From assembly GCA_964535655.1 (NCBI GenBank), contig CAZHTP010000002.1, positions 90,054 through 154,053 of the forward strand: a DNA stretch of 64,000 bases, written 5' to 3'. The stretch's first letter is position 1. Every line of letters starts with the position of its first letter. This DNA comes from an uncultured Gammaproteobacteria bacterium. Lineage in GTDB: Bacteria > Patescibacteriota > Microgenomatia > JALYQM01. Position numbers and translations under genes: made by a program. This document shows, piece after piece, positions 25,724 to 62,864 of the stretch. Under the pieces are notes generated by a model, which was not told the origin of the DNA, ran no database searches, and worked only from the letters and a program-made list of their open reading frames with translations.

Positions 25724-26155
25724 ATGCGTAAGTACGCCATCCTGTTCGCTCTGCTGGCCGCCCTGCTCGGGTTCATCAACACCGCCAACGCCGCCCCGGC
25801 TGAGTGCCGCCGCTGGACCTACACGCAGGACGCCGTGGACAACAAGCCCATCGCCACCGGCATCGAGCTGTTCAACCAGCAGTCGATCAGCATGACCTCG
25901 CCTGAGACGGGAGCCGTCCTTCGGTTCCGCAGCCTCAAGCCCTTCAGCGTGAATGGCGGCGAGGCCACCTGGACAGAGATCGCCCCCGGCGTCTTCACCT
26001 GGCAGTACGTCTACTACTTCCCCAAGGGGCACACCTACCGCATGAAGATCACGAACGTCGACGCCCGCGTCATCCCAACCATCCTGCCGGACGGCCCTGG
26101 CCGCGGCATCACCTGGACCAAGTGGTCGGCCCAATGCGGGGACTATCAGCAGTAG
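25724..26155 (+). CDS. Secreted small protein (143 aa, signal peptide, 2 Cys) encoded by a strongly GC-rich (~65% GC, high GC3) gene
   Basis: RBS AAGGAG 8 nt upstream of the ATG. Signal peptide MRKYAILFALLAALLGFINTANA. Codon usage (ctg, gcc, ggc, cgc) is sharply different from the rest of the window. Confidence 0.7.
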   Translation: MRKYAILFALLAALLGFINTANAAPAECRRWTYTQDAVDNKPIATGIELFNQQSISMTSPETGAVLRFRSLKPFSVNGGEATWTEIAPGVFTWQYVYYFPKGHTYRMKITNVDARVIPTILPDGPGRGITWTKWSAQCGDYQQ

Positions 26156-30711: not shown

Positions 30712-30730
30712 GCCGCTAGACGACGGGGCC
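30657..30730 (-). tRNA. tRNA-Glu (anticodon CTC)
   Basis: Minus-strand cloverleaf GGCCCCG-TC-GTCT-AGCGGCCTAGGAC-G-CCAGG-TTCTCAT-CCTGG-AGATC-AGGGG-TTCGATT-CCCCT-CGGGGCT-A, very close to canonical bacterial tRNA-Glu. Confidence 0.8.
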
Positions 30731-30995: not shown

Positions 30996-33350
30996 TTAAT
31001 TTTCGTTACTTCCAACCAATTGTAATTCTTTCCAGAGTAGCTGACTTGATTCTTTACCTACAGCATTCACAGAGATTTGCTGCGTTAATTCACGCCATCG
31101 AGTGTGCTCTTCAATTGGTTTATTATCCTTACCAGTCATTTCTTCACTATAGTGAATTGTTCGGCGCCCAGTCGACTCGACAATTATATTCTGCTTTTCA
31201 AACGATTTCGTATCATTCTGGTAATGAATTACGGGCTGTGTAATATACACATATTCTTTTACAAGTTCCCACAGCACGTCATTTACGGCTTCATTTGTCT
31301 CAGAAACGGGAAGGCCAAGTGTTTGTGCTTCAAAATAAACAATTGGATAGTGTGCTGAAGGATATCCCTGAGTTAATTGAGTTATAATCTTTGCAATATC
31401 AGTATCGCTTCTTTTATTTTTTGTACTTAATTTCATTAAGTTTGTACAAATTCGTTGAGTTAGCGCAAATTGGCGTGCAGCGGCGGCAGTTACCAATGGA
31501 TGAAACGGCGATTGTGAAGGATCCATTACTGCAGGTTGATCATCTTTTTGCTTAACAGTTTTAGTGGGTGTTGTTGCTGATGCCTGGAATATCTCACTAA
31601 TTGGCACAGAAGCAGATTCTTCGTTTAGTGCTTTTTGTAAAAGCATATGCGAAAACGTGGTATCAATGGGTGATAAAAATCCAAATGGATTCATTAATAT
31701 TGAATCAGCCGCCAGCGCAAACATTGTTGTTGCCATTGTCGATTCTTCTGGCAATATAACGTGCATTTCTTCACAGAATTCACGGATAAGTGTTGCCATT
31801 CTCCAAACGACCGTACTATCAGTATCCTGGATGAATGGAATAACAAAGAGCGACTTTTTCCTTCCTAATTTTCGTAGGTGGCTATACAGATAGCGCATAT
31901 CCTCCATTGCTAATTTGGCTTGAGCGGCATAAAAAACAAGTACTTTCCCATGAAGTGATTCTTCAAGTCGTTCTATTGCTTCCTGGGTATGTTCCCATGC
32001 TACCGGTGGCTTTCGTTGAGGGGCCATTGCTGCGACAGGTGCTTGTCGGGGAGCCTGTTGTGAACGCCGATCTTCTCGTTGCGGCTGACGCGGTGTTTCA
32101 GATCGAACATTCTCTATTCGTTGTTCAGGTTGTGACCGATCTCCAACCGGCTCCGGTTGCTGATTTCGCGGCGGACGAGCTTGCTGATCTTCTTGTCGTG
32201 GCCGTTGTTCCTCCTGTCGAGTAGGTTGCTCTTGCGGAGGCCTCGGTGGCTGAGTATTTTGTCGTGGTTGCTCTTGTCTTTGTTTCTGCTCTTGTTTTGG
32301 TTGGTCAGGTCTTGTCGGCGCAGATTGGACTGGCTGTTGTGGCTCCGGTTGCTGATTTACTGTCTCTTGAACAGGCATCTCTTGTGGTTGCTGTGTTTGT
32401 TGTTTAGGTTGCTGTGGTGGTGCCGGCTGAACAGCAGATACCGGTTTTTGTTGTTTGGGTGTCGGTGGCGCGGCTTGTTGTTGAGGAGCAGGCTGGACCG
32501 GTTGCGGTTTAGGTGCTTGTTGCTTCGGAGCAGGTGGTCTCTGTGGTGGTTGTGCTGGCTGTTGTTGAGGCATTGGTTGTTTGAACACCGAGTCAAGTGA
32601 AGGCAATGAGGGCGGTTGATTTGATGCGGCGGCTGCCATTGGTTGATTAAGCGGTGGTAATCGCTGACCGCCTGCAGGTGCGGGTGCAGACATACTTGGC
32701 GTATTTAATGGTGGCAGCCCAGGTGCGCTATTAGCTCCCTCAGGAGCATCAAATTGCAAACCACTACTCTTAAGTAAGTCGTCCAAACTTGGTAGATCGA
32801 AATTATCGTTGGGGGCATTGACTTGACCTTGCTTACTAAACGGCAACGGTGGAACTTGGCTTTGTACGGCCTGAGGAAGAGGCGCTGGTGCGGGAGAATT
32901 TTGTAGTGTAGGTGGGATCGGTGTTGCCGTCGCCTGTTCGGCCGCGGGAGATACCCCGTTAGTATAACTCTCCCACGCTAAGTCGGTTATACGTTTATAA
33001 ATCAGGTCAAAAGGGGATTTACGCATCTCTCCCTTAAGCCGCTGATAGCTCGTCATTGTTACAGTATTGTTCCCCATGGAGTCAACTACACTTAATGTTA
33101 CATCAGGAACATTTGGGGATGCCCCCGAATCATGAATTATATTAGGCAATTGAAAAAAACCAGTCTCCCTGCAATATTGGAGAGTTCCCATAACTTTATT
33201 ACGATCAATTTGCCGTTCTACAATATCTGTATCAGATTCAAAAATAAGCATTCGTCCGTTGTCGTAAATCTCAACATCGCCAGCACGAGAATTTGGCGGT
33301 AAAAGGCCACCACTCATTTTTACTAGTATTGCTAGATTTGAAACTGGCAT
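30996..33350 (-). CDS. Three-part protein: N-terminal domain, ~250-aa Pro/Gln-rich low-complexity spacer, C-terminal SDH/ClpP-class (S49-like) protease-like domain with the catalytic Ser apparently substituted
   Basis: The C-terminal segment FVIPFIQDTDSTVVW...ESTMATTMFALAADSILMNPFGFLSPID parallels the SDH-family ...HYAMSGGTLIALAADEIVMD...GPVDP, with Ala replacing Ser. The start is placed at an internal Met because the longest ORF overlaps tRNA-Lys(TTT). Confidence 0.45.
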   Translation of the reverse strand: MPVSNLAILVKMSGGLLPPNSRAGDVEIYDNGRMLIFESDTDIVERQIDRNKVMGTLQYCRETGFFQLPNIIHDSGASPNVPDVTLSVVDSMGNNTVTMTSYQRLKGEMRKSPFDLIYKRITDLAWESYTNGVSPAAEQATATPIPPTLQNSPAPAPLPQAVQSQVPPLPFSKQGQVNAPNDNFDLPSLDDLLKSSGLQFDAPEGANSAPGLPPLNTPSMSAPAPAGGQRLPPLNQPMAAAASNQPPSLPSLDSVFKQPMPQQQPAQPPQRPPAPKQQAPKPQPVQPAPQQQAAPPTPKQQKPVSAVQPAPPQQPKQQTQQPQEMPVQETVNQQPEPQQPVQSAPTRPDQPKQEQKQRQEQPRQNTQPPRPPQEQPTRQEEQRPRQEDQQARPPRNQQPEPVGDRSQPEQRIENVRSETPRQPQREDRRSQQAPRQAPVAAMAPQRKPPVAWEHTQEAIERLEESLHGKVLVFYAAQAKLAMEDMRYLYSHLRKLGRKKSLFVIPFIQDTDSTVVWRMATLIREFCEEMHVILPEESTMATTMFALAADSILMNPFGFLSPIDTTFSHMLLQKALNEESASVPISEIFQASATTPTKTVKQKDDQPAVMDPSQSPFHPLVTAAAARQFALTQRICTNLMKLSTKNKRSDTDIAKIITQLTQGYPSAHYPIVYFEAQTLGLPVSETNEAVNDVLWELVKEYVYITQPVIHYQNDTKSFEKQNIIVESTGRRTIHYSEEMTGKDNKPIEEHTRWRELTQQISVNAVGKESSQLLWKELQLVGSNEN
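31900..32640 (-). repeat. Low-complexity coding repeat (Pro/Gln/Glu/Arg-rich, ctg/ttg/ggt-rich DNA) inside 30996..33350
   Basis: Reiterated QQPxPQ / PKQQ peptide units. Generates long spurious antisense ORFs. Confidence 0.7.
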
Positions 33351-33476
33351 ATAAAAAGAGTGTATCCAAGATCGACATCTCTTGTCAATTGACCGCTGCC
33401 AGTGATACAGTATCCTAATCCAAGCGTAGACGGGTGTATATATCTCTGATATAATCATCACCGAGGAAATAGCAAT

Positions 33477-33548
33477 GGGTCGGTAGCTCAATGGTAGAGC
33501 AGCAGCCTTTTAAGCTGTTGGTTCTGGGTTCGAATCCCAGCCGACCCA
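33477..33548 (+). tRNA. tRNA-Lys (anticodon TTT)
   Basis: GGGTCGG-TA-GCTC-AATGGTA-GAGC-A-GCAGC-CTTTTAA-GCTGT-TGGTT-CTGGG-TTCGAAT-CCCAG-CCGACCC-A. Confidence 0.85.
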
Positions 33549-44610: not shown

Positions 44611-44766
44611 AACTAACTAAGTGTAATTAAGAAACATTCGCAAAGTCAATTGCCTTGTCTTAGACTAGAAATTCCTTTACAAACATGGTACACTGATTAA
44701 CGCTTTATACCCGAAAATAACCGGAAAGCATCGAACACTAACAGTATAAAATTAAGGAGATTAGGC

Positions 44767-47700
44767 ATGTCCAAAGACCTCATATCGATTAAAGGTGCGC
44801 GTGAAAATAATCTGAAAAATATTGACGTCGACATTCCCAAACATAAGTTAGTTGTATTTACCGGGCTTTCTGGCTCAGGAAAATCGTCACTTGCTTTTGA
44901 CACTATTTACGCTGAAGGTCAAAGACGATATGTGGAGTCGCTATCATCCTATGCAAGGCAATTTCTTGGAGTAATGGACAAGCCCGATGCCGATTACATC
45001 GAAGGGCTATCACCAGCAATTTCAATCGATCAGAAAGCCGCATCGCATAATCCACGCTCAACTGTTGGTACAACTACAGAAATATATGACTATCTCCGGT
45101 TGCTTTTTGCCCGGGTTGGCCATCCGCATTGTCCAAAATGTGGTCGCGAAATCCAGCATATGTCTATTGATCAAATCGTTGACTCAGTATTTCGGCTCGC
45201 CGGCGATATCATGTCTAAAGATAAACAGGTCGCTATTCGTGGTGCTCGGCTATTTATTCTGTCTCCTGTTGTAAAAGAACGAAAGGGCGAATTTAGTAAT
45301 CTTTTTGCCGACTTGCGCAAAAAAGGATTTGCCCGTGCTCGTATCGATGGCACCGTTCGTGATCTTTCTGATGACTTTGGCCTTATTAAAACCAATAAAC
45401 ATTCAATTGATGCTCTTGTTGATCGCATTGTTATTTCACAAGACGTTAGTCAATTATTTGTTAAACAGTCAAAAGAAGGTAAAGAAGCCCTCACAACCGA
45501 TGATTTTGACAAACTGCAAAGTATCCGCACTCGGGTTTCGCAGTCGGTCGAACAAGCACTAAAGCTATCAGAAGGCACAGCAATCGTATCAGATATTCAG
45601 GATAACGATCTAAACTTTCCTCAAAACCCTCAAAAAATGGAAGATCACCTATTTTCAGAAAATTTTGCCTGTCCCTTTGACAATATTTCCTTACCAGAAA
45701 TCGAACCACGCACATTTTCTTTTAATTCGCCACAAGGCGCTTGTCCCAATTGCGCCGGGCTCGGCACAGAACTAAAAATTGATGCCGATTTAATCCTTAA
45801 CCCAAACTTAAGTATCTCTGAAGGGGGAATTTTACCTTGGAATCGCCTTTCAAGCACTGAAACGTGGTTTACTCGCATCATCAATGAAGTGGCCGCTGTA
45901 AAAGGATTTGCTATAAAGGTTCCCATTAAAGAGCTTTCATCAGAAGCGATCAATATTTTGTTAAAAGGCACCGGTAACGAGACATTTTTTGTAAAAGGCG
46001 AAAATCGCCAAGGCAAACAGACTGGATTTGAAACTGTCTTTGAAGGAGTGATTCCTAACTTACTTCGTCGTTACAAAGAAACCGAGTCAGATTATGTTCG
46101 TGGTGAAATAGAAAAATATATGCGCTCAGAAATTTGTCCAATTTGCGAAGGCAAGCGACTCAAGCCAGAGGCACTTTCTGTGACAATTAATAAAGATTCA
46201 ATTTACGACATCACAAATAATTCTATAAAAAATGCCCTTACCTGGGTGCATTCTCTACAAGCCGATAAAACCCTCTCAGATCGCGAAACCACAATCGGCA
46301 AGCCAATTCTTAAAGAAATAGTTAATCGACTACAGTTTTTAATCGACGTCGGACTCGACTACCTTACCCTCAACCGTACATCAGCAACTTTAGCAGGGGG
46401 AGAAGCACAAAGAATTCGTCTAGCTTCACAAATTGGGTCCGGGCTAACGGGAGTTTTGTACGTGCTTGACGAGCCTTCAATCGGATTGCATCAACGCGAC
46501 AATACCAAATTAATCAAAACGCTCAAGCGACTTCGTGATTTAGGAAATAGTGTCATTGTTGTCGAACATGACGAAGAAACAATGGAAGACTCAGACTATA
46601 TCTTTGACTTTGGCCCAGGTGCAGGCGAGCACGGAGGACAAATTATTGCGCACGGTACCCCCGAGGAAATTAAAAAAGATAAGAAGTCCATTACTGGTCA
46701 ATATCTATCAGGCAAAAAAATCGTTGAAGTAGATAAAAACTTCTCAGTAAAAGCTCTTATGGAGTCAGATCAGCGCCGACGGAAAAAGGTCAATGAAAAT
46801 GTAATGGAGATAAAAATTCTTGGAGCAAAAGAGCACAATTTAAAAAATATTGATGTTTCAATCCCGCTTGGCAAATTCGTTACGGTAACCGGCGTTTCGG
46901 GGTCAGGAAAATCTACATTAGTCCATGACATTTTATATAAATCACTATCCGAACATTTTTTCCATTCCAAAGATAAGCCCGGAAAACACGACGATATTGT
47001 CGGCCTTGAAGCACTCGACAAATGTGTGATGATCGATCAGTCACCTATTGGTCGTACACCACGCTCTAACCCGGCAACATACACAGGAGCCTTTACCTAT
47101 ATTCGCGAGCTTTTTGCTCGAACAACAGAAGCCCAAGTCCGTGGCTATGGCCCGGGTCGCTTTAGCTTTAATGTTAAAGGCGGGCGCTGTGAAGTGTGTC
47201 AGGGTGACGGCATGATTAAAATTGAAATGCAATTTTTACCCGATGTGTATGTAAATTGCGATGCCTGTGAAGGCAAGCGCTATAATCGTGAAGCGCTTGA
47301 AGTTCATTATCGCGGCAAGAATATCTTCGATGTTCTCAACATGACGGTCGAAGAAGGACTAGATTTCTTTGGCAGCATCCCAGCATTAAGAAACAAACTC
47401 GAAACGTTATATGATGTTGGGCTAGGATACATCCGCCTAGGCCAACCTGCAACACAACTTTCTGGTGGAGAAGCCCAGCGCATTAAGCTCGCTTCCGAAT
47501 TATCCAAACGTCCAACAGGTCACACAATGTATATCCTCGACGAACCAACAACTGGCTTGCATTTTGCCGACATCTCTCGCCTGCTTTCTATCCTGCGCAG
47601 GTTAGTCAACCATGGAAATACAGTCTTAGTAATTGAGCATAATCTTGATGTGATTAAAAACGCCGATTGGCTTATTGATCTTGGCCCTGAAGGCGGCGAC

Positions 47701-47817
47701 GGAGGTGGCACACTTGTGGCGCAAGGTTCGCCCGAAGAACTTGCCGAAGTCAAAGAAAGCTATACAGGGAAGTATTTAAAGAAAATGTTTGATAAGCAAA
47801 AAGTTTTAGGGAAGTAG
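44767..47817 (+). CDS. uvrA: Excinuclease ABC subunit A
   Basis: Two ABC ATPase modules (GLSGSGKSS; GVSGSGKST) and zinc-finger Cys clusters (CPKCGRE; CEVCQGDG...CDACEGKR). Confidence 0.9.
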
Positions 47818-47842
47818 TAAGCTCTGGTATAGTATTAGAGCA

Positions 47843-49651
47843 ATGAAAAAATTTATATTTTTTTCGGCTGTGCTACTATCTCTGGTTTTTGTAAGCCAAG
47901 CATCTGCTGATTCAGAATTTAGTGAAAAAGATTCTGTTTTGTATAACATCAACGAAGATGGCTCAACCCATGTTACGCAAAACATCAAAGTCACCAACAA
48001 AACCGCAGAGTATTACACCAATAAGTACTCGTTAAGGGTAGGAACACAAAAAATAACCAATCTAAAAGCATACGATAAGGCGCGCGCCATTAAAGCAGAT
48101 CTACAAGAAGGGACTGCTGCGGCAATAACCCTTGACTTCCCCGATCAAATAATCGGCAAAAATAGCACTCGCAGTTTTACAATTGAATACGACACGCAAT
48201 CGATTGCCCAAAAGCTCGGAACATCCTGGAGCATCACAATCCCACGAGTCTCAAGTAATGATCTTGACGAATATCTAGTAGCAATTTCAGTACCACAATC
48301 ACTTGGTGCTGCTTCAACCATTTTTCCTAAGCCCGAAAGTGAGACAATTAAAGGAATAAGAACAGAATATACTTTTAGCACTGAACAAATGACTAGCTCA
48401 GGTGTAACGCTAAGTTTTGGGGATAAGCAAGTATATACTTTAGGATTAACTTATCACTTGAGTAACACGCAAAAAAATAGCGTTTACACCGAGATCGCCT
48501 TGCCGATGAACACTCCTCACCAAACCATTGTTTACGAATCACTTAACCCAAGTCCTCAATCCATCTATGCCGACCAAGATGGTAATTATATAGCTCGCTA
48601 TATTCTCAAGCCCAAAGAAAGTATTCAGGTACAATCAATCGCCAAAGCAATTGTGTACATTAATAAGCAGTACAAAGATAACAATCTGTCTGAGTCACAA
48701 AAGAGCATATATTTAGAAAAGCAGCCATACTGGGAAAGTGATGATAAAAAAATTGTAAACCTAGCAAGTGAATTAAAAACGCCCGAGCAAATATATCGCT
48801 ACGTAGTTTCAACATTAACCTATAATGCGGCGAAAGTAAGCAACAATTTTGACCGGATAGGAGCGGCCAAAATTCTATTAAGCCCCAAAAACAGTGTTTG
48901 TATGGAATTTACCGATCTATTTGTCGCGCTTGCCAGAGCTGCTAAAATCCCCGCTCGCGAGATCAACGGCTACGCGTATACAAGCGACGCAACCCTTCGC
49001 CCAGCATCACTCTCACAAGACACTCTTCACGCTTGGCCTGAATATTATGACGATGACCAAGGTTGGGTTCAAGTCGACCCAACCTGGGAAAACACCACAC
49101 ACGGTGTTGACTACTTTAATTCTTTTGATCTCAATCACGTTGCGTTTGTAAAAAAAGGTGTAAGTAGCCAGACACCGTATCCCGCTGGTGCGTACAAAGG
49201 TGTAGATGAAAATACGCACGATGTCGTTGTTAACTTTATCTCCGAAGAACCACAGATTAATAAGGCTATTAATACAACGCTTGATACCCCAAAAAGCCAT
49301 GTTGCAGGCGCAACTTTGAATTGGAAAATAGGGATTAAAAACACCGGCAACACTGGATTTTTGGGAGACATCCTTGAGGAGGTCCAGTTTAAAGATAAAA
49401 AAACTTCACAACAGTTTCCTGTTATAGTCCCACCATTTGGATCAACAAGTATTACGGGTAATGGTCTAAAAACCGAAATGAAAGACAGTGGTACAGCTTT
49501 GATTACAGTCAAAGCCCTTGACCACGTTGTAGATAAGCAGGTAGAGATTGTTCCATTTTATCGCCACTCGGCTACTTTAGTGGGATTTCTGTATTTACTT
49601 GGTGCACCACTAGTTGCCATCTTTTCGTACAGAGTACTCCACAAAAAATAA
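47843..49651 (+). CDS. Secreted transglutaminase-like cysteine protease superfamily protein with C-terminal TM anchor
   Basis: Signal peptide, Cys-His-Asp core (CMEFTDLFVALARAAKIPAREINGY ... HAWPEYY ... WVQVDPT), and a C-terminal hydrophobic helix. Confidence 0.65.
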   Translation: MKKFIFFSAVLLSLVFVSQASADSEFSEKDSVLYNINEDGSTHVTQNIKVTNKTAEYYTNKYSLRVGTQKITNLKAYDKARAIKADLQEGTAAAITLDFPDQIIGKNSTRSFTIEYDTQSIAQKLGTSWSITIPRVSSNDLDEYLVAISVPQSLGAASTIFPKPESETIKGIRTEYTFSTEQMTSSGVTLSFGDKQVYTLGLTYHLSNTQKNSVYTEIALPMNTPHQTIVYESLNPSPQSIYADQDGNYIARYILKPKESIQVQSIAKAIVYINKQYKDNNLSESQKSIYLEKQPYWESDDKKIVNLASELKTPEQIYRYVVSTLTYNAAKVSNNFDRIGAAKILLSPKNSVCMEFTDLFVALARAAKIPAREINGYAYTSDATLRPASLSQDTLHAWPEYYDDDQGWVQVDPTWENTTHGVDYFNSFDLNHVAFVKKGVSSQTPYPAGAYKGVDENTHDVVVNFISEEPQINKAINTTLDTPKSHVAGATLNWKIGIKNTGNTGFLGDILEEVQFKDKKTSQQFPVIVPPFGSTSITGNGLKTEMKDSGTALITVKALDHVVDKQVEIVPFYRHSATLVGFLYLLGAPLVAIFSYRVLHKK

Positions 49652-49713
49652 AAAAAATCCCACCGAGGTATTACTGATGTTGTAAACAACAAAAGTAGGA
49701 TACCCCGGTGGGG
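49641..49713 (-). terminator. Rho-independent terminator for the minus-strand GC-rich gene, probably acting bidirectionally
   Basis: 13-bp stem CCCACCGAGGTAT/ATACCCCGGTGGG with one mismatch. On the minus strand it is followed by a T-run (complement of the 49641-49657 A-run). Confidence 0.55.
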
Positions 49714-49724
49714 CGAATACAAGG

Positions 49725-50714
49725 CTAGGCGCACTTGGCGACTAGAGCGCGAAGTCTCTCGACTTCGGCTAGCCAGTAACGCCCTGTGGCGGTAAGGTCG
49801 TTTCGATCGCTTTCAAGGTCACCTAGGACGTCTTGCGCTATGATGATCTGGCCGTGCTTTGTCTCAATCTGAGACTCAATGCCAGCTATCTGCGCCTTCG
49901 TGTCCTGTATTTCTCCCTTAACCTCTTGGATTGACTGCATCAGTCGGGACCTTGTCTCTCGATCAGGCTCATCCCTTAGCTCTGCCTGCAGCTTGGCGAG
50001 CTCCTCTTGAAGAGATACTAAAAGGTCCTCGGCAGCAGCCAGCTCTCTAACCAGCGCGCGCTCTGCCGCTATTAACCCTTCGAGAGTCGACTTTTGGGTC
50101 GCGATCCGACCTTCGACCTGCCGTAGGGATTTCGCGATCTCCTTAGCCTTTTCCTGTGCAGCGGCGAGCAGCGCACGAAGCTCGTTGCAGTCGCCTGACG
50201 CGGCTGCAGGTGACGGCGACGGCGCCGAGGTCGGGGCGGGTTGCGACTCGTCGTCGTTGTTCTGTTGGGCCGCTTGGTAACCACCATTGACATAGAATGC
50301 CCACAGCTCATCGCGATCTCTGACGGCTTGCCCATATTTCGCATGGTATTGCGGCTCTGTAATAACCCATGCGTTGATGTCCTGCCATTCTTGATAGGCC
50401 TTGCTCGTGGTCATATACCCTAGCGGGTTCCACACTGGCCCTACCAGAATGATGCTATAATCTCCCGCACGCGGGAGATCGTCCGTAGGCAAAACGTCAT
50501 TGATACCGACCGACTCCGGTGGTGACGTTGGCGCTGTTTCCACTGATTCCGGGGCCGCCGTTGGTGCCGATGGCACTGCGGTTGCGGCCGGCCGAGCAGG
50601 CGGCGGGGCAGGGGGGAGACAATCCCCTGTGTCCCTGCACCCAGCGCTCACTGGCGAAACCCCGAGGAGGATCCCGATCACCACTGCGAACACGAGCCAA
50701 ATTCTGGTTCTCAT
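49725..50714 (-). CDS. Secreted/lipoprotein-like protein with Pro/Ala-rich region and a long C-terminal coiled coil, encoded by a GC-rich (~60%) gene
   Basis: Start taken at MRTRIWLVFAVVIGILLGVSPVSAGC, with RBS AAGGAGG 5 nt upstream. C-terminal heptad-like LRALLAAAQEKAKEIAKSLRQVEG... region. Composition contrasts with the AT-rich flanks. Confidence 0.65.
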   Translation of the reverse strand: MRTRIWLVFAVVIGILLGVSPVSAGCRDTGDCLPPAPPPARPAATAVPSAPTAAPESVETAPTSPPESVGINDVLPTDDLPRAGDYSIILVGPVWNPLGYMTTSKAYQEWQDINAWVITEPQYHAKYGQAVRDRDELWAFYVNGGYQAAQQNNDDESQPAPTSAPSPSPAAASGDCNELRALLAAAQEKAKEIAKSLRQVEGRIATQKSTLEGLIAAERALVRELAAAEDLLVSLQEELAKLQAELRDEPDRETRSRLMQSIQEVKGEIQDTKAQIAGIESQIETKHGQIIIAQDVLGDLESDRNDLTATGRYWLAEVERLRALVAKCA

Positions 50715-51030
50715 TGCGCCCTCCTTAACGAGCAAGAATAGGGGAACATCCCCATATCAAATTCTTGCCCTTGGCACACGAGAGGCTCATACAAATGAGC
50801 GCCTTGTGTGCCAAAGGAGGATTTATTTATAGCCTTGTAAACGTGCAAATATGTATTCTGTATAGTAAATTAAATTAAGAAATTCTTAATCATTCGCCTA
50901 CAGAATCCCCGTAGTATATCAAAAATAACAGACGCAGTCAACTACTATAGGCCTACGTCGTAATACCTCAAAACTCTGGTGAAAAAGTTTAACGATGTAC
51001 TGAAAATATTAAAATTGTTAACATACACCT

Positions 51031-52341
51031 ATGTCTGAGATCAAAGACTCACTAAAAGAAACTTTAAAATCCCTGCCCGAAAAGCCAGGAGTATATCTCT
51101 ACCACGACGCAGGGAATAAAATCATATATGTCGGTAAAGCAATAAACCTGAAAAATCGCGTCCGTTCCTATTTCCAGTCGCCAGATAAGCTAGGGCCAAA
51201 AACAGCAGCACTTGTTGCCAATATTGAAAGGATCGAATATTGGGAGGTAGACAGCGAAATCGAAGCCCTTTTGCTTGAAGCAGAGCTTATCAAGCTTCAT
51301 AAGCCTCGGTACAACATAATCTTAAAAGACGATAAGTCGTATCTTTATATCAAAATCAGCACCAATGAAGAAATTCCTCGTATTTCAACCGCTCGTCGCG
51401 AAAATATTGAAGGTGTAACGTATTTTGGCCCTTTCCCTAGTGCGCAGACTGCTAAAAACGTTTTAAAGACCATTCGTCGCGTTTTTCCGTATTGTTCCTG
51501 TAGCCCTGGGCAAAACACGCAGAAAGCATGCTTTTACAATCATATTAATCTTTGCCCGGCGCCGCGTGCTGGGCTAGTAAGTCCTGAGGCGTATAAAGAT
51601 CAGTACATAAAGCAAATCACGCTATTTTTAAGTGGTAAGAAAAAACTAGTCATTAAAGAAATTGAAAAAGAGATGAATACGGCAGCGAAAGATTTGCGCT
51701 TTGAAGATGCATCCAAGCTTAAAAAGAAACTCGATGATCTAATCTATATTACGCAGTCCGTAAGAAAGCCAGCGGACTACATAGAAAACCCCAATCTAGT
51801 GGAGGACCAACGAATAAAAGTACTCGAAGAACTGCAAGCCCATATTAATAAATATATTAATTTGCCAACTCTACCCAATAGAATAGAATGTTACGATATT
51901 TCCAATATTCAAGGCAAAGAAGCCGTAGGGGCAATGGTTGTTTTTACCAATGCTCAGCCAGATAAGGGCGAATATCGCAAGTTTAAAATTCGTACAAAAG
52001 ACACACCAGACGACTTTACTATGATGTCTGAAATGCTGCGCAGGCGGCTAAACAATGATTGGGAGTTACCAGACTTAATTGTAATCGATGGTGGTAAAGG
52101 CCAACTCCAAGCAGCGCTTGACACTTTAAAAGAAGTCGGAGCCACGATTCCCGCAATTTCACTTGCAAAACGTCTCGAAGAAATATACTTTAAAGTAGAG
52201 GGTGATTTCGAAAAGATTCTCTTGCCACGCAACTCAAAGCCATTACAGTTATTGCAACACATGCGCGACGAAGCGCACCGCTTTGGAATAACTTTTCACA
52301 GGTCACTGCGCAGCAAAAAGTTACTTTCGGAAAAAATTTAA
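51031..52341 (+). CDS. uvrC: Excinuclease ABC subunit C (short form lacking the C-terminal HhH2 domain)
   Basis: GIY-YIG domain (GVYLYHDAGNKIIYVGKAINLKNRVRSYF), UvrB-interacting region, and a C-terminal RNase H-like endonuclease domain (HMRDEAHRFGITFHRSLR). 436 aa. Confidence 0.8.
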   Translation: MSEIKDSLKETLKSLPEKPGVYLYHDAGNKIIYVGKAINLKNRVRSYFQSPDKLGPKTAALVANIERIEYWEVDSEIEALLLEAELIKLHKPRYNIILKDDKSYLYIKISTNEEIPRISTARRENIEGVTYFGPFPSAQTAKNVLKTIRRVFPYCSCSPGQNTQKACFYNHINLCPAPRAGLVSPEAYKDQYIKQITLFLSGKKKLVIKEIEKEMNTAAKDLRFEDASKLKKKLDDLIYITQSVRKPADYIENPNLVEDQRIKVLEELQAHINKYINLPTLPNRIECYDISNIQGKEAVGAMVVFTNAQPDKGEYRKFKIRTKDTPDDFTMMSEMLRRRLNNDWELPDLIVIDGGKGQLQAALDTLKEVGATIPAISLAKRLEEIYFKVEGDFEKILLPRNSKPLQLLQHMRDEAHRFGITFHRSLRSKKLLSEKI

Positions 52342-52760
52342 TGAAACATATTATCCGCAATATTTTAATTGCTATCGGTGGAATCTATTTGTTAACCTTC
52401 CTTAATAGTGGATTCACCTATTCGGGAGATTATCGTACGCTTCTTTTGGCTGGCTTTGTCATGTTTTTTCTTGACACCATTGTTGAGCCTATTCTTAACA
52501 TAATTTTTATCCCGATTAATTTTCTTACAGCGGGGCTATTTAAGTGGATTGTAGCGGTTGGACTATTTTACGCTCTAGTCTACTTTGTCCCTGCTATTCA
52601 TATTAGTTCTTGGTTTTTTTCTGGCTATTCCTTAGTAGTCCCAAAGTTTAATACCATCCATATTCCTTCATACAACTTTGCCTTTTGGCCAAATTTAGTT
52701 CTATTGTCCTTTATGTATAACTTTGTAGTAGGATGGTTAAAATGGCTTTGTAGTGATTAA
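52341..52760 (+). CDS. Hypothetical membrane protein
   Basis: 139 aa, 4 TM helices. Start overlaps the uvrC stop. Confidence 0.4.
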   Translation: MKHIIRNILIAIGGIYLLTFLNSGFTYSGDYRTLLLAGFVMFFLDTIVEPILNIIFIPINFLTAGLFKWIVAVGLFYALVYFVPAIHISSWFFSGYSLVVPKFNTIHIPSYNFAFWPNLVLLSFMYNFVVGWLKWLCSD

Positions 52761-52807
52761 AAGCATTGGTTTGCGCTCCAGTCGCGCTTAGTATATAATC
52801 CTAAGGT

Positions 52808-53026
52808 ATGAAAATTCTTCAGATAATACAAATCACTCAGATTATTGTCTCTGTACTGCTTATCGTTGTGGTTTCTATTCAAGGCAAGGGGGCAGGGCTT
52901 TCCTCAACATTCGGCGGGGGAGCACTGTACAGCACACGTCGTGGAGCTGAAAAATTTGTTTTTTACGCGACCATTATTCTCGGAATCCTATTTGCCGGCC
53001 TTTCTCTCACAACATTATTTATATAA
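52808..53026 (+). CDS. secG: Preprotein translocase subunit SecG
   Basis: 72 aa, two TM helices flanking the Gly-rich motif QGKGAGLSSTFGGG. Confidence 0.6.
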   Translation: MKILQIIQITQIIVSVLLIVVVSIQGKGAGLSSTFGGGALYSTRRGAEKFVFYATIILGILFAGLSLTTLFI

Positions 53027-53044
53027 TCAGTTATAATAGCTACT

Positions 53045-54460
53045 ATGAATAAGCAGATCCGGTTCTATTCCTGGATGATTCAGGGGTATATTCGTAAGCA
53101 CACACTTAAAACACTTTTTATACTCTCCCTAATTATTATTTCAGGCTATGGGATATCTCTGTGGATTCCAACAATTACCAAGCCCAATGAAGATATTTTT
53201 ATTGAAGGGTACGTTGGTAAGTTTACTAAACGTAATTTACCACCGCAAATTCTAGACTATATCAGTTATGGTTTAGTAACAACTGACGTCCAAGGCAAAC
53301 CGATACCAAAAGCGGCCGAATCAATTGAATCAGATGGAACTGGCAAAAAATTTACCGTCAAACTACGAAAAGATATTAAATGGCATAACGGCACACCACT
53401 CCTTTCGACAGACTTAACGTATAACCTTGCTGATGTACAGATTGATAGGCCTGACGAGCACACCTTAGTTTTTACTCTTAAAGATTCCTTTGCACCATTC
53501 CCTACATTGTTAACAGGTCCACTCATTAAAATTACCTCTTCAAATGACGAAGTGCTGGGAATAGGTGATTACTACCTTGCTACAGAAGAGTACCGACAGA
53601 CTCAGTATATAACTACTATTGAATTACGTTCAGTAAAAAAATCTCCGCATATTGTAAGAATTAAATTTTATCCAACGGAACAGGATGCCGTTACTGCATT
53701 AAAGCTTGGGCAAATTCAAGGACTACGAATAACTAATTCTCAAGAAGTAAGAGATTGGAATAATGTAGTGGTGTATGAAAAAGTCATTCCTAAGCGATTT
53801 GTAGGAGTATTTTTTCAGTTAAAAGATAATTTAGTAGGGGGCAAAGAGCCTATTCTTAGACAAGCACTATCAGCAGCAATACCCGACATACCTAAGGAGC
53901 TACAATTTAAAGGGCCATTCCCCCCAGGATCATGGGCCGAATCTTCAATTGAAAGCAAATACCATAGTGCCCCCGATAAAGCGAAACTACTTCTTGATCA
54001 ATACAAGAAAAATAATAAAGGCTCAACTCAAGATCTCTCAATAACACTGTCAACGTTACCTGCGTACAAAAACACGGCCGATCACGTAGCTCTTGCCTGG
54101 GCAAATATTGGAGTAAAAACGAAAATAAATATTGTTGATAAAATCCCAGAAAATTTTCAAGCGCTTATCATTGGACAAGAAATCCCCGCCGATCCAGATC
54201 AATACAGTTTATGGCATTCCACTCAAAAGCAATCGAATATAACGAACTATGATTTTAACAAGCGAGTGGACAAAGATTTGGAAGATGCCCGAAAGACTAT
54301 TAATGAAAATGTCAGAAAAGAAAAATATGCGGATTTTGAAAAGCAGATATTAGAAGATGTCCCTGTAATCTACTTGTATCAACCTTATTATGAGTACGTA
54401 TTACTCAAGAAAAAAAATACTGAACAGGTAAAGCAGTTTAAAGGGTTTTCTTCAAAGTAG
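53045..54460 (+). CDS. Extracellular solute-binding protein, family-5-like (peptide/oligosaccharide ABC transporter SBP-like), membrane anchored
   Basis: N-terminal TM and ~450-aa periplasmic-type domain. Weak family-5 SBP resemblance only. Confidence 0.4.
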   Translation: MNKQIRFYSWMIQGYIRKHTLKTLFILSLIIISGYGISLWIPTITKPNEDIFIEGYVGKFTKRNLPPQILDYISYGLVTTDVQGKPIPKAAESIESDGTGKKFTVKLRKDIKWHNGTPLLSTDLTYNLADVQIDRPDEHTLVFTLKDSFAPFPTLLTGPLIKITSSNDEVLGIGDYYLATEEYRQTQYITTIELRSVKKSPHIVRIKFYPTEQDAVTALKLGQIQGLRITNSQEVRDWNNVVVYEKVIPKRFVGVFFQLKDNLVGGKEPILRQALSAAIPDIPKELQFKGPFPPGSWAESSIESKYHSAPDKAKLLLDQYKKNNKGSTQDLSITLSTLPAYKNTADHVALAWANIGVKTKINIVDKIPENFQALIIGQEIPADPDQYSLWHSTQKQSNITNYDFNKRVDKDLEDARKTINENVRKEKYADFEKQILEDVPVIYLYQPYYEYVLLKKKNTEQVKQFKGFSSK

Positions 54461-54570
54461 GGTTAATCTAATGAGCATCCTGTCGAGCTCTATTCTGCGC
54501 ATACTTATCAGCGCGCGCCTTCCCGCCACTTCGTGCAACTCTTTTTCTTGTTTCTACATCTGCATAGTAT

Positions 54571-54590
54571 AAACCGCGCGGTTTTGATTT
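54571..54590 (+). terminator. Candidate rho-independent terminator (AAACCGCGCGGTTT palindrome followed by a T-rich tract)
   Basis: Seen directly ~110 nt downstream of the SBP gene. Confidence 0.3.
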
Positions 54591-54599
54591 CTGACTTCG
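54587..54599 (+). repeat. 13-nt direct repeat ATTTCTGACTTCG (first copy). The second copy is at 54964-54976, inside the recombinase A 3' coding region
   Basis: Exact match seen directly. The two copies bracket the tRNA-Arg/tRNA-Lys pair. Confidence 0.5.
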
Positions 54600-54766
54600 T
54601 GTCATAGCTGCCTCCAGATATTTATATCAAATATATAATAATAATGTATAATAAGATTATCATATAAAAATATTTTGTTCAACAGGAAAAATGCGCAAAA
54701 GATATAATTTAGTTTTGTATCTCTGTTGTGATATAATTCCTAAGAACAAATCGTTAGTTTCTATCC

Positions 54767-54839
54767 GCCTTCGTAGCTTAATGGATAGAGCAGTTGGCTT
54801 CGAACCAACCGGTTGGGGGTTCGAGTCCCTCCGAAGGCA
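54767..54839 (+). tRNA. tRNA-Arg (anticodon TCG)
   Basis: GCCTTCG-TA-GCTT-AATGGATA-GAGC-A-GTTGG-CTTCGAA-CCAAC-CGGTT-GGGGG-TTCGAGT-CCCTC-CGAAGGC-A. Confidence 0.8.
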
Positions 54840-54882
54840 CCGAGCAGAAGCCAGTCTCGCGACTGGTTTTTAGTTGTTTTTT

Positions 54883-54953
54883 GGGCTGGTAGCTCAGCGG
54901 TAGAGCAGTTGCCTCTTAAGCAATTGGTCCTGGGTTCGAATCCCAGTCAGCCC
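54883..54953 (+). tRNA. tRNA-Lys (anticodon CTT). The 3' 38 nt are also the antisense of the 3' end of recombinase A
   Basis: GGGCTGG-TA-GCTC-AGCGGTA-GAGC-A-GTTGC-CTCTTAA-GCAAT-TGGTC-CTGGG-TTCGAAT-CCCAG-TCAGCCC-A. Confidence 0.8.
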
Positions 54954-56715
54954 ACAAGTTATCATTTCTGACTTCGAACTTTCCTTCGCTGGCAAGCCGT
55001 TGCATTATGTCTTGCGGTAAGCGTAAATCTATTCTTACTTGGTACGGTATTACTTGGTCTTCCTTCTTTCGACCCGCTATAACGTCTTTTTTTGTCGCTT
55101 TTCGAGTGTAAACATGGATTCTATCAACGATAAGATGTATTAAAGTTGACACTTCTTGCCTGTCTGTCATTAGCCCGTCTAAAAATGGTTTATATTGCTT
55201 TGCGAATAACTTAAAGGTTCGAGCATAAACGTTTGAAATTTCACCTTCACCGATTTGAAATTGTATTGTTGCTAAGTCTTTCTTTAATTCGACTTCTTTT
55301 CTATTTATGTTGTCCATTTTTTCGTCATATTCTGCGTCGCTAATATCGCCTCGCTCATACATACGTTTTACGTTTTGACGTCGTCGTGGCAATTCGTTTA
55401 GAACTTTTGTTATATCTGATTGTTTTTTCTCTAGCAGTCTTTTTCTGGCCTTTGTCGATTGAAGTGAATTAACATGGTTGTAGACGCTTTGGGGGTCATT
55501 TAGTAAGTCTTTTACAAAGTTCGATACAAATTGTTCTATCTCGTCGGCTGGGAAGGGAATAGCCCTACAAACAGTCGAATACTTTTTTGTATTCTTTGCA
55601 CCACATTGGTAGTAGTAAGCCCGTTTACCGTTCTTCTTAATAACCTTACTTGTTCCCGTCCAGTTAAGCGGGTCACGGTCAGAATAAGGGTCGTAGCAAG
55701 CATGACATTTTAGAAGACCAGACAATAAATAAAGGTGATTATCAGCCGTTTTCTGGCTATTTCGTAAGGCGATATCTTCTTTAATGCGTTGTTGCGCCAA
55801 TTCAAATATACCGAAGTCGATAATTGCGTCATGCTGGTATGGCGATTTTTCCCATAAAGACCTGTCAAGACGCTTACTTCCCTGGTTCTTGTTGTAATAA
55901 TAAATACCTAAATACACTTCGTCTTTAATAATTGCTCTAACAGTCGAATCGCGCCAAAAATGTGGGTCATTTATCTTCGTGCGGCCTGCCCGTCTTTTGC
56001 CATATTTAATCGCGGAAGGCGAAGGTGTGAGAACTTTTTTATCTATTAGGTAGTCAGCAATTTGCTGGGTATTTCTTTTTTCGACTACAAAAAGTTCAAA
56101 AATGTTGCGCACAATTTCAGTTTCAGGTTGTAAAATTTGAAGCCGCTTATCTTTATCCTTTTTATAGCCATAAGGCGCGTTTGCACCCATATAGACGCCA
56201 CGTTCTATCGCTTGCTTTTTGCCACCCTGCGTTCTATCTTTTGTTGTTTCCCTTTCGAGTTCAGCTACTACCCCGATAATACCTAGCATTGCTTTACCGA
56301 AGGGCGTAGAGGTATCTATACTTTCATTCGCAGAAATGAATTTTATGTCGTGAGCCTCGAAGTATTCAGTTACTTCCAGTAGGATTTTTAGCTTACGGGC
56401 GAATCTATCAATACGATAAACAAGAACAATATCAAAAGGTTTTACGCCACCTGGCGCGTTTTCTATATCTTCTTTCATTCGTATAAACGCGGGTCTTTGC
56501 TCTAAGGGCGTTGTGCCACTAACACCTTCTTCTTTGTATAAATACTGTTTGCCAGCTAAAACCATAGCGGGTTTACCGTTATCAAGATTGCCTTTAGACG
56601 CAATAATCCCTTCTATTGAAGCCTTTTGCAAAGGAATGCCGTATTTTTCCATTTGTTCGTCCGTAGATACTCGAAGATATCCCGCGGCACGAAGTGTTAC
56701 TTGTTGTTTATTCAT
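54916..56715 (-). CDS. Large serine recombinase A
   Basis: YLRVSTDEQ catalytic motif, recombinase domain, and Cys-containing zinc-ribbon region (CHACYDP...YYYQCGAKN). The C-terminus ..WADWDSNPGPIA* is translated from the antisense of the tRNA-Lys T-arm and acceptor. Confidence 0.85.
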   Translation of the reverse strand: MNKQQVTLRAAGYLRVSTDEQMEKYGIPLQKASIEGIIASKGNLDNGKPAMVLAGKQYLYKEEGVSGTTPLEQRPAFIRMKEDIENAPGGVKPFDIVLVYRIDRFARKLKILLEVTEYFEAHDIKFISANESIDTSTPFGKAMLGIIGVVAELERETTKDRTQGGKKQAIERGVYMGANAPYGYKKDKDKRLQILQPETEIVRNIFELFVVEKRNTQQIADYLIDKKVLTPSPSAIKYGKRRAGRTKINDPHFWRDSTVRAIIKDEVYLGIYYYNKNQGSKRLDRSLWEKSPYQHDAIIDFGIFELAQQRIKEDIALRNSQKTADNHLYLLSGLLKCHACYDPYSDRDPLNWTGTSKVIKKNGKRAYYYQCGAKNTKKYSTVCRAIPFPADEIEQFVSNFVKDLLNDPQSVYNHVNSLQSTKARKRLLEKKQSDITKVLNELPRRRQNVKRMYERGDISDAEYDEKMDNINRKEVELKKDLATIQFQIGEGEISNVYARTFKLFAKQYKPFLDGLMTDRQEVSTLIHLIVDRIHVYTRKATKKDVIAGRKKEDQVIPYQVRIDLRLPQDIMQRLASEGKFEVRNDNLWADWDSNPGPIA

Positions 56716-60956: not shown

Positions 60957-62864
60957 TTAATTAGCTAGGCTTTGTAGAAAACTGTTATTTCTAGAAGCAA
61001 AGTGAAGAATTTTAAGGTCAATATCGTTATAATAGAACTGTAACGGAAGTATTTCTTTCTTGTTTAGTTCTGGGTCAGAAATGCTGTCCCACCATTTATC
61101 ATTTTCCACCGTGAACCCAGAATCCAATAAGTTATTTAACATATTATGTGGTAATTTAATCTGGATATCTATCCCATTTGGGATCATTTGGTTGTCTTTT
61201 TTTTGACCAGCTATTTTGTCTTCTTCATTGCGTGGTCTTGCCTGAACAATAATTTTATCTACGATTGAACTAATTAGTTCTTTCAAGAGTTTTGGATCTC
61301 TATTTGTGCTTTGTAAAAAGTCTTTGTATTTTGTCTTAAATTGTTCAAAAACATCCAAATACCCGTCATATAAAATGAAATCACTCAATTGCCGATCAAT
61401 TTCAATAATCTTGTTTTCATAATCTAATTGCTTTTTAATAATTTGTTCTTTATACGCTTGTGCTTTTTCAGCAGAATACACTCCGTGCAATAACGCTTCT
61501 TCATTTCGTGCAATTTGTGCAGGTATACCACCAAGCAATTTCTTGTACTGCTTAATATCGTCTTGCAACTTATCCTTAGCTAATCTTGTAGATTTAAGAT
61601 CACCATAGTGTTTGTAAACTGCTGTAGGGTCTTTTAAGAGGTTTAGTATAAATTGTGTGACATACGCTTCAATTTGCTTAGCAGGAATAGGAATCACAGG
61701 GCATACAGTATCAAACTTTTTTCGGTTTTTCCTATTGCATTGGTAATAGTAAATATATTCTGTCTTGGCTTTATTTTTATGTTTAACACCAGTCCATCCG
61801 AATGATTGATTTTTGGTTAGTAACTTATTTTGATCCAAACTTTCACAATATTTACACTGCAAAAGACTTCCTAATAAATATTCATTTGTATTCGGCTGAT
61901 GATTTATTTTCCTCTCCTTTAGATCTGCGACTCGTAACTGTACAAGCTCAAATAAATGAAAGGGAATGATTGCTGGTTGACTGTATTTTGAGAGAGTCCA
62001 CTCATCTTTAGCGAGCTTTTTACCTTTTTTGGTTTTATTAAAGTAGTAACTACCAGTATATATATCATTTGTTAAAATTTTTTTGACTTGCTCTGCTCTC
62101 CAAAAGAAAATACTATTTTTTTTATTACTATCACCAAGTCTTTTATTGTTTATTATGGCTGAGTCTTCGGGACTTTCTATCATTTCTTCTTGTAGTAAAT
62201 CTGCAATCTGCTGATAAGTGTATTTATGGACACTAAAAAGTTCATGTATTCTTTGAACAATTTTTTCCTCACTAGGTAAAATAATCAATTTCTTATCTTC
62301 ACCACGAATGTATCCATATGGGGGTTGTTTTCCTGCTACCGAACCTTTGTTTTTTGCTACTTCTAGTCCTGACTGAGTTCTTTCAAGAATAACCTCACGT
62401 TCTAGCTCAGCTATCACTCCCATTATGCCAAGCATAGCCCTACCGAACGAATTTGAGGTATCGATGCTTTCTAATGCCGATATGAATTCAACTTTATTCT
62501 TAGCTAGAAAGTCACTTATTTCAAGTAAAATTGTTAGTTTTCTAGCGAATCTATCAATTTTATACACAAGTACAACATCAAAAGGTTTATTTTCACCAGC
62601 ATTTACTAAGTCTTCAATTAGCCTAGAAAACGCTGGACGTTCGTTAATGGGGGTGGTTCCTGAAATGCCATCATCAACATAAACATAGTTCTCACCAGCG
62701 AGAATCATTCGAGGTCTATTATCGTCAAGTACTCCTTTTGTTTTGATAATTGCTTCTACTGTTGCACGTTGCATTTCCAGACCGAACCTCTCTTTCTGAT
62801 CTTCGGTGGAAACTCGTAAATATATTGCAGCTTTTATTTGAGTTTGGGTATTTTCAATTATCAT
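60957..62864 (-). CDS. Large serine recombinase B (paralog of A)
   Basis: IYLRVSTEDQ catalytic motif. Aligns with recombinase A through the N-terminal ~170 aa at high identity. Zinc-ribbon Cys cluster (CKYCESLD...YYYQCNRKN). Confidence 0.85.
   Translation of the reverse strand: MIIENTQTQIKAAIYLRVSTEDQKERFGLEMQRATVEAIIKTKGVLDDNRPRMILAGENYVYVDDGISGTTPINERPAFSRLIEDLVNAGENKPFDVVLVYKIDRFARKLTILLEISDFLAKNKVEFISALESIDTSNSFGRAMLGIMGVIAELEREVILERTQSGLEVAKNKGSVAGKQPPYGYIRGEDKKLIILPSEEKIVQRIHELFSVHKYTYQQIADLLQEEMIESPEDSAIINNKRLGDSNKKNSIFFWRAEQVKKILTNDIYTGSYYFNKTKKGKKLAKDEWTLSKYSQPAIIPFHLFELVQLRVADLKERKINHQPNTNEYLLGSLLQCKYCESLDQNKLLTKNQSFGWTGVKHKNKAKTEYIYYYQCNRKNRKKFDTVCPVIPIPAKQIEAYVTQFILNLLKDPTAVYKHYGDLKSTRLAKDKLQDDIKQYKKLLGGIPAQIARNEEALLHGVYSAEKAQAYKEQIIKKQLDYENKIIEIDRQLSDFILYDGYLDVFEQFKTKYKDFLQSTNRDPKLLKELISSIVDKIIVQARPRNEEDKIAGQKKDNQMIPNGIDIQIKLPHNMLNNLLDSGFTVENDKWWDSISDPELNKKEILPLQFYYNDIDLKILHFASRNNSFLQSLAN

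Follow-up and report, generated by a model that had tools for sequence, protein, structure and literature searches.

Phage morons, of which the HK97 gene 15 element is an example, come with a promoter and a terminator of their own and a guanine plus cytosine (GC) content unlike that of the neighbouring genes (PMC3594210). The gene described here resembles such elements. It is located on the minus strand at positions 49725-50714 of a 64-kb stretch of contig CAZHTP010000002.1 (the whole of this stretch is called the window below), where it forms a single extra gene between two genes that abut in relatives. As in morons, the GC content is deviant and the gene appears to have its own promoter and a factor-independent terminator. 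Moron products are often envelope or secreted proteins, and the 329 amino acid (aa) product of this gene displays a putative signal peptide. Unlike morons, the unit is found in the chromosomal core (uvrA, a transglutaminase-like gene and uvrC) and has no phage homologue. Thus three of the four features of a moron are present, i.e., extra DNA, deviant GC, and a predicted promoter and terminator of its own, but the fourth, a location within phage or prophage DNA, is missing: the flanking genes (uvrA, the transglutaminase-like gene, uvrC, a core gene of the Phage_holin_4_2 family and SecG) are all collinear with those of relatives. Because phage residence fails, the gene is termed moron-like and not a moron. 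The evidence makes it likely that it is a horizontally acquired, chromosomal, moron-like gene for an orphan exported protein.

Small genomic islets and ORFan insertions, i.e., insertions of open reading frames (ORFs) of restricted distribution, provide a second comparison. These are also lineage-specific, show atypical codon usage and have no homologues in close relatives. The window insert differs from them in being an unusually complete expression unit, as far as can be predicted, and in that a mobility gene, a tRNA site and a repeat scar are all absent.

In terms of the protein, the nearest functional analogues may be the EnvC/PcsB-type regulators and the adaptor alpha-hairpins such as that of EmrA. 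EnvC and PcsB are exported coiled-coil hairpin proteins that activate cell-wall hydrolases. A signal peptide, an antiparallel two-helix coiled coil, a small globular domain and an extramembrane location are shared with, or predicted for, the window protein. However, its globular domain is N-terminal, i.e., the order is reversed, and there is no sequence similarity. LytM, CHAP and lipoyl/beta-barrel domains are absent from the window protein, and a terminal Cys pair like its own is not characteristic of the analogues.

Insertion between the transglutaminase-like gene and uvrC

UvrA of the window falls in a 90% cluster whose representative is encoded on a 1.57-Mb contig of assembly GCA_964403585.1 (L007, a close relative). 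This locus was compared with the window together with a Logan contig from another run (L008) and two distant relatives (L004 and L005), whose UvrA proteins are 60-62% identical to that of the window. Both L007 and L008 have the gene order uvrB, Cyt-b5-like, uvrA, Transglut_core, uvrC and Phage_holin_4_2-family gene, collinear with the window. The aa identities to the window are 93% for UvrA, 63% for the transglutaminase-like protein, 81% for UvrC and 86% for a 139-aa protein, and the nucleotide identity is about 73%.

The gene lies between the Transglut_core gene (47843-49651) and uvrC (51031-52341), as had been stated in the initial annotation. From the stop codon of the former to the ATG of the latter there are 1379 nucleotides (nt) in the window, vs 14 nt in L007 and L008 and 11 nt in L004; in L005 the two genes overlap. 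A tblastn search with the 329-aa protein gave no match at any of these four loci. As the junction is tight in three lineages, two of them distant, gain of the gene in the window lineage is far more parsimonious than three losses, each restoring a near-perfect abutment. Thus the empty sites directly demonstrate that the gene was gained by insertion in the window lineage, and the acquisition that had been proposed from the sequence of the window is borne out. The inserted DNA is GC-rich from 49659 to about 50830, with AT-rich promoter DNA at 50831-51030. No small ORF with a family match was found in it.

Composition of the coding sequence

The ORF has a GC content of 58.4% vs 40.5% for the window, and the GC maximum of the 64 kb is the 990-nt stretch from 49701, with 58.8% (mean 40.6%, standard deviation 3.7%). 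At third codon positions the GC fraction (GC3) is 0.609, compared with a mean of 0.334 for the 43 other ORFs of the window (standard deviation 0.046, range 0.25-0.44; z = 5.9). At first and second positions the fractions (GC1 and GC2) are 0.66 and 0.48. Codons ending in G or C are raised for all twelve amino acids examined. The GC excess is thus present at synonymous sites and is not a by-product of the abundance of Pro and Ala, and the composition of the ORF is truly foreign, in agreement with the GC-rich (~60%) gene of foreign composition that was originally described. A fine GC profile displays steep changes at ~49700 and ~50830, and no sequence similarity was found between the insert and the rest of the window. 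A TTG at 50735, given as the start codon in a mechanical ORF list, would overlap the ribosome-binding site and was rejected; the ATG at 50714 was therefore taken as the start.

Other GC-rich sequence is also present in the window. An 831-aa ORF at 30996-33491 (minus strand) has a GC-rich middle section (32001-33000) that encodes Pro/Gln-rich low-complexity sequence with a host-like GC3 of 0.327; its C-terminal part weakly matches a ClpP-like SDH-type protease. Given this host-like GC3, some GC peaks of the window are native and not foreign. A different pattern is shown by the plus-strand ORF at 25724-26155, which encodes a 143-aa protein with a signal peptide. Its GC content is 64.6% and its GC3 0.917 (z = 12.5), the GC step falls exactly at the start and stop codons, and TAAGGAG is found upstream. 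The 143-aa protein is also encoded on short Logan contigs of three runs, and its cluster lists Logan but no NCBI sequences. It has no Pfam match and its sequence is unrelated to that of the 329-aa protein. The features of this ORF are consistent with the initial annotation, in which two separate GC-rich secreted-protein genes were counted in the window.

Predicted signals for expression

From the promoter match (Table 1), transcription is predicted to start near 50906, which would give a leader of about 190 nt. In the minimum free energy structure of the leader, the Shine-Dalgarno sequence is base-paired to the sequence CCUCCUU, and this pairing closes a junction with two hairpins inside it. 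In the partition function, CCUCCUU is the partner of six of the seven Shine-Dalgarno nucleotides at probabilities of 0.93-1.0. When this anti-Shine-Dalgarno sequence is replaced in silico, the probability that the Shine-Dalgarno nucleotides are unpaired rises on average from 0.10 to 0.82. Translation is therefore predicted by the folding model to be held down by this pairing. The Shine-Dalgarno sequence itself is the strong ribosome-binding site of the initial annotation.

The terminator hairpin (49659-49712) has 13-bp arms with an internal stem, a folding energy of -32.5 kcal/mol and z = -6.0, and is followed by U8-A-U6; the dedicated hairpin/T-run terminator noted earlier is thus readily recognised. 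Its U-tract is complementary to the A-rich tail of the transglutaminase-like gene (AAA AAA TAA) together with six more A residues, the order at the left edge being host AAA AAA TAA, six A, T, and then the hairpin. The formation of the U-tract from the host gene end points to a functional join and not a random one. The hairpin arms include CCCACCG/CGGTGGG, and an integron cassette was considered and rejected: there are no attC core sites (RYYYAAC ... GTTRRRY) and no integron integrase, and the recombinases of the window are of the serine type and several kb away.

The leader hairpin at 50768-50817 can also be read on the plus strand, where it may terminate or insulate antisense read-through from the uvrA and transglutaminase-like genes before uvrC. 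A search of Rfam with the leader and flanks gave nothing credible. The predicted signals together indicate that the insert is a complete, self-contained transcription unit consisting of promoter, leader, one gene and terminator. By inspection, TAAAAT at 51010-51015 is a candidate -10 box for uvrC, which probably keeps its own promoter after the insertion.

Protein architecture and the single homologue

An exhaustive HMMER search with residues 68-160 (93 aa) against 1.84 billion cluster representatives yielded one true homologue, P0002, a 336-aa protein (E = 8.6e-33) that is 65% identical in the aligned part. The two proteins have the same architecture, and each has exactly four Cys at equivalent places. 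The identity differs by segment: it is 61% in residues 26-67 and 64% in the aromatic-rich domain, but 8% in the second linker and 19% in the coiled coil. Synonymous differences between the two genes are saturated (pS 0.81-0.83), and in residues 26-150 the proportion of nonsynonymous differences (pN) is 0.26, compared with 0.61 in the coiled coil. This pattern argues that the gene is a real coding sequence under selection. It further suggests that the small domain carries the conserved function, and that the hairpin retains its geometry only, i.e., the heptads, the turn and the terminal Cys pair. The distances from the distal Cys pair to the turn Pro are 74 and 78 residues in the window protein and 77 and 79 in P0002.

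P0003-P0005, which were also returned, are not homologues. They are repeat proteins in which each stretch scores at most 12 bits (E above 2e4), and their low E-values are sums over near-identical repeats. When the whole protein was searched against Pfam, NCBIfam, PHROGs, PADLOC and the PDB, all matches were to the coiled coil, scored far under the cut-offs and were regarded as noise. With the N-terminal half or the conserved domain, no Pfam family was found at E <= 10, and the best PDB profile match to the N-terminal half has E = 0.25. A word-index homologue search with the whole protein returned only the protein itself. Nothing was found in JGI metagenomes and IMG/VR with peptide patterns and a degenerate YHAKY.QAVRDR pattern, and blastn and tblastn searches of INPHARED phages and PLSDB plasmids gave no match.

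The signal peptide displays, by inspection, a charged n-region, a hydrophobic h-region and small residues at -3 and -1 (V-S-A followed by G), and signal peptidase I probably cuts at VSA, before GC. The initial annotation had described this N-terminus as signal- or lipoprotein-like. The signal peptide part of this description agrees with the inspection, but the lipoprotein part is ambiguous and is not supported at the family level. The window sequence V-S-A-G-C fits a loose PROSITE-style lipobox pattern with Ser at -3; however, the corresponding sequence in P0002 is T-L-A-H-C, in which the His at -1 breaks the lipobox rule. Cleavage by signal peptidase I (VSA/G and TLA/H) is thus likelier than lipidation. 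There is no second hydrophobic segment or C-terminal membrane anchor in the 329-aa protein.

The CRDTGDC motif that follows the signal peptide is identical in both family members, and its C-x5-C spacing suggests a small disulfide loop. Residues 26-67 include 12 Pro and 9 Ala among 42 residues, corresponding to the Pro/Ala-rich spacer noted from the window sequence. The conserved domain displays the motifs NDVLPTDDLPR, WNP, YQEW, AWV, YHAKY.QAVRDR and NGGY. The coiled coil recognised in the initial annotation is present, but is longer than the ~120 residues given there, with ~150 residues in a hairpin (176-328). In AlphaFold2 models made with one or two input sequences, the helices 176-248 and 252-328 are antiparallel with a predicted local distance difference test score (pLDDT) above 90 in both runs, and residues 1-173 are unmodelled. 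The turn is at the only Pro of the hairpin (P250), and Cys176 and Cys328 are located at the open end. As these two residues are neighbours in an antiparallel hairpin, a disulfide staple is a natural deduction that suits an exported protein, and Cys176 and Cys328 are probably linked in this way.

With the N-terminal half unmodelled, all that Foldseek finds are long helical hairpins of a generic kind (SMC arms, the dynein stalk, PI3K iSH2, HP0958, EmrA and YscO). The SMC, Rad50 and JetC arms are the top Foldseek matches and also give weak profile matches, over residues of about 176-325. However, the window protein has no ATPase heads and is apparently exported, and the likeness is one of generic coiled-coil composition. 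Membership of these families was rejected, as the scores are 18-25 bits against cut-offs of 567-729 (TIGR02169, 25.1 vs 729.4, residues 176-325 only).

P0002 is encoded on a 1.5-kb Logan contig (L006). Its gene has a GC content of 52.4% and a GC3 of 0.49, with flanks of 37-41% GC and a neighbouring gene fragment with a GC3 of 0.30. The flanks are unrelated to those of the window gene, the one shared string being GGAGG(G)CGCAA(A)ATG at the gene start. Long hairpins at 103-157 and 1236-1290 of the contig bracket the P0002 gene, with sequences unrelated to those of the window. The folding z-score is -7.9 for the leader region as a whole (1-200) and -4.0 for the 3′ region (1190-1330), which has a terminator-like hairpin.

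Table 1. Features of the inserted segment and of the encoded protein, with window coordinates.
Feature	Position	Strand	Remarks
Lineage-specific inserted segment, 1379 nt	49652..51030	no strand	Transglutaminase-like stop codon to uvrC ATG
Sigma-70-like promoter	50913..50941	-	TTGACT, 17-nt spacer, TG-n-TATACT; 10/12 matches, extended -10; consensus match only
Predicted 5′ leader, ~190 nt	50715..50906	-	Minimum free energy -69.1 kcal/mol, z = -4.8 vs shuffles
Leader parts (predicted)			5′ hairpin; hairpin with 23-bp arms, 50768-50817; second hairpin, about 50731-50769; CCUCCUU, 50814-50820
Leader hairpin (50768-50817) read on plus strand, then AUUUAUUUAU	50768..50829	+	-37 kcal/mol, z = -6.1
Shine-Dalgarno AAGGAGG	50720..50726	-	5 nt before ATG
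Coding sequence, 329 aa and stop codon	49725..50714	-	ATG at 50714; GC 58.4%, GC3 0.609
Signal peptide, residues 1-24	50643..50714	-	MRTR, 15-residue hydrophobic core IWLVFAVVIGILLGV, SPVSA; by inspection
CRDTGDC motif, residues 26-32	50619..50639	-	Identical in both family members; C-x5-C
Pro/Ala/Thr-rich linker, residues 33-67	50514..50618	-	AlphaFold2 pLDDT below 50
Conserved aromatic-rich domain, residues 68-150 (83 aa)	50265..50513	-	64% identical to P0002
Second linker, residues 151-175	50190..50264	-	Ser/Pro/Ala/Asp-rich low-complexity; 8% identical to P0002
Antiparallel coiled-coil hairpin, residues 176-328	49731..50189	-	Helices 176-248 and 252-328; continuous heptad registers
Intrinsic terminator	49643..49712	-	Hairpin 49659-49712, then U8-A-U6

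Alternative explanations

Several observations weigh against a horizontally acquired, self-expressing gene for an exported protein. Neither a target-site duplication nor a terminal repeat or other scar was found at the borders of the insert, and direct repeats, which had been looked for there as remnants of the insertion, are absent. The only border repeats are inverted pairs of 10 nt (49718-49727/50830-50839 and 49665-49674/50960-50969). These were not interpreted, since 1.5 kb of sequence should contain about one pair of this kind by chance. No recombinase or transposase is found within the insert. No donor was found: no GC-rich genome among the 1.84 billion representatives carries the domain, and the only homologue is also found in AT-rich DNA. 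The leader of the homologue has different hairpins and no anti-Shine-Dalgarno pairing, so that the leader structure is without comparative support. Export and the disulfides are deduced from sequence rules, and the conserved domain has a pLDDT of only 30-45 in the AlphaFold2 models.

The alternative that survives best, although it is considered improbable, is that the gene is the remnant cargo of a phage or mobile element, i.e., a moron, a superinfection-exclusion or surface lipoprotein gene, or a gene for a spanin-like lysis protein, whose carrier has since decayed or delivered it. The moron-like anatomy, with its own predicted promoter and terminator and deviant GC, and the presence in the window of three large serine recombinases by tRNA genes are in keeping with such an origin. 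So is the protein to some extent, as its N-terminus is compatible with a lipobox and its Pro-rich and coiled-coil segments loosely recall o- and i-spanins. The insert consists, however, of one gene with conserved core genes on both flanks, and in all relatives the adjacent Phage_holin_4_2 gene belongs to the core. There is no match to INPHARED, PLSDB or IMG/VR at the DNA or protein level, and PHROGs and PADLOC give coiled-coil noise only.

The likeness to the spanins Rz/Rz1 lies in a signal that resembles a lipobox, a segment rich in Pro, coiled-coil helices and cysteines of functional importance. In contrast to these, the window protein is one 329-aa chain with no N- or C-terminal membrane anchor or transmembrane segment, the homologue is without a lipobox, there is no PHROGs match, and the gene is not accompanied by a holin/endolysin cassette. 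A spanin identity was rejected because a membrane anchor is lacking and there are no lysis genes in the insert.

Less probable still, and already disfavoured, is a native fast-evolving gene that was lost by the relatives and whose GC content derives from aa composition or mRNA selection. A composition rich in Pro, Ala, Gly and Arg does lift GC1 and GC2, and the 831-aa ORF is an example of native Pro/Gln-rich stretches that are GC-rich. However, that ORF has a host-like GC3, whereas the elevation of GC3 in the present gene extends to every amino acid examined, and the native origin also requires the three abutment-restoring losses discussed above.

A chimeric assembly or contamination that joined GC-rich DNA of a different organism to the contig would account for the sharp composition steps but is very improbable, because Logan assemblies of two runs, each spanning both composition junctions, are 100% identical to the window there (L001, 7235 nt, run SRR8893623, window 44689-51923, from uvrA into uvrC; L002, 1207 nt, run SRR8893624, window 49678-50884), and because the terminator U-tract is made from the A-rich 3′ end of the host gene itself. 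Thus the chimerism that could have overturned the initial annotation is unlikely, and horizontal acquisition remains the preferred explanation.

Genomic neighbourhood and host lineage

Positions 51031-54955 are core DNA collinear with the relative, comprising uvrC, a 139-aa membrane protein gene, SecG, SBP_bac_5, tRNA-Arg and tRNA-Lys. The nearest recombinase element begins only after tRNA-Lys and is thus separated from the gene by ~4 kb of conserved core genes, which confirms the earlier statement that the gene is outside of the recombinase elements. Three large serine recombinase genes are present in the window, at 29182-30711, 54916-56715 and 60957-62864. There is an overlap between the first and tRNA-Glu (30656-30730), and the second lies directly next to tRNA-Lys (54883-54955), beyond which synteny with the relative stops. 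The serine-recombinase regions are probable integrated elements. Another difference from the relative is a ClpP gene located between the SBP_bac_5 gene and tRNA-Arg in L007 (18507-19193), which is missing from the corresponding place in the window (54468-54473).

The uvrB, uvrA and uvrC genes cluster around the conserved transglutaminase-like membrane protein gene in all relatives seen. UvrC is only 436 aa in length (window 51031-52341; L007 14896-16206), with GIY-YIG, UvrC_M, UVR and RNaseH-like regions and no helix-hairpin-helix listed. The uvrC start of the relative (L007 14882-14898) is GTTATAATATATTCATG, which has a TATAAT-like box and no Shine-Dalgarno sequence. In the window, many starts (e.g. 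47843, 53045, 57103 and 60328) likewise lack a Shine-Dalgarno sequence and have a TATAAT-like box 6-12 nt before the ATG, an arrangement suggesting that leaderless mRNAs, or mRNAs with very short leaders, are common in the lineage.

DnaE of the window scores higher with Thermus (833 bits) than with M. tuberculosis (724) or E. coli (704), and the score of BipA with its E. coli counterpart is only about 655 bits over 613 aa. From these scores, the lineage is not a typical gammaproteobacterium. It should be noted that L004 and L005 are deposited as "uncultured Gammaproteobacteria" and that such labels may be unreliable. Searching the literature with the run and assembly accessions yielded no result.

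Origin and proposed role

In the proposed course of events, a foreign segment of ~1.38 kb would have inserted, in the window lineage only, into the tight junction between the transglutaminase-like gene and uvrC. The unit would be expressed from its own minus-strand promoter of the sigma-70 type, with a structured leader, a strong Shine-Dalgarno sequence and a hairpin/U-tract terminator. The product would be exported through Sec, most likely with cleavage by signal peptidase I after VSA, and outside of the cell it would be stabilised by two disulfides, C26-C32 and, probably, C176-C328. The flexible Pro/Ala linker would bear the 83-residue aromatic-rich domain. As strong purifying selection is confined to this domain, it is a likely ligand-binding module, and the fast-diverging hairpin is probably a stalk, spacer or oligomerisation module. 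Judged from its sequence, the protein is most likely a cell-surface or envelope-associated binding or adhesion protein, although the binding part of this assignment is a guess.

By the Muto-Osawa and Lawrence-Ochman relation, which links GC3 to the GC content of the genome, a GC3 of 0.61 corresponds to a donor with at least about 55% GC, and more if amelioration has begun. Both family members are GC-rich genes in AT-rich DNA, and they thus look like independent arrivals from an unsampled, GC-richer pool. A wider proposal is that there is an unseen pool of small, self-expressing GC-rich cassettes, coding for exported, disulfide-stapled coiled-coil proteins that have a new binding domain, which repeatedly enter AT-rich, small-genome bacteria, possibly through uptake of DNA from a GC-rich partner or host organism. 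This proposal is speculative and, at present, doubtful. If it were true, genes of this kind would record, as molecular footprints, which organisms live together, and the anti-Shine-Dalgarno lock of the leader would be a built-in silencing of a foreign gene until it is needed.

The type of event described here, ordinary horizontal gene transfer, is well known, and the family is new and tiny; current understanding is not overturned. What the locus provides is a clean, datable acquisition of a single gene in a conserved DNA-repair gene cluster of an uncultured bacterium with a small genome, with empty sites for comparison. It also establishes an orphan family of two members, with a new conserved domain, predicted to be extracellular, and an unusual coiled-coil hairpin that is probably stapled by Cys residues. 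Moron-like "plug-and-play" units thus appear to exist outside of prophages as well, and if the donor were found, the gene would offer a handle on the ecological partners of the lineage.

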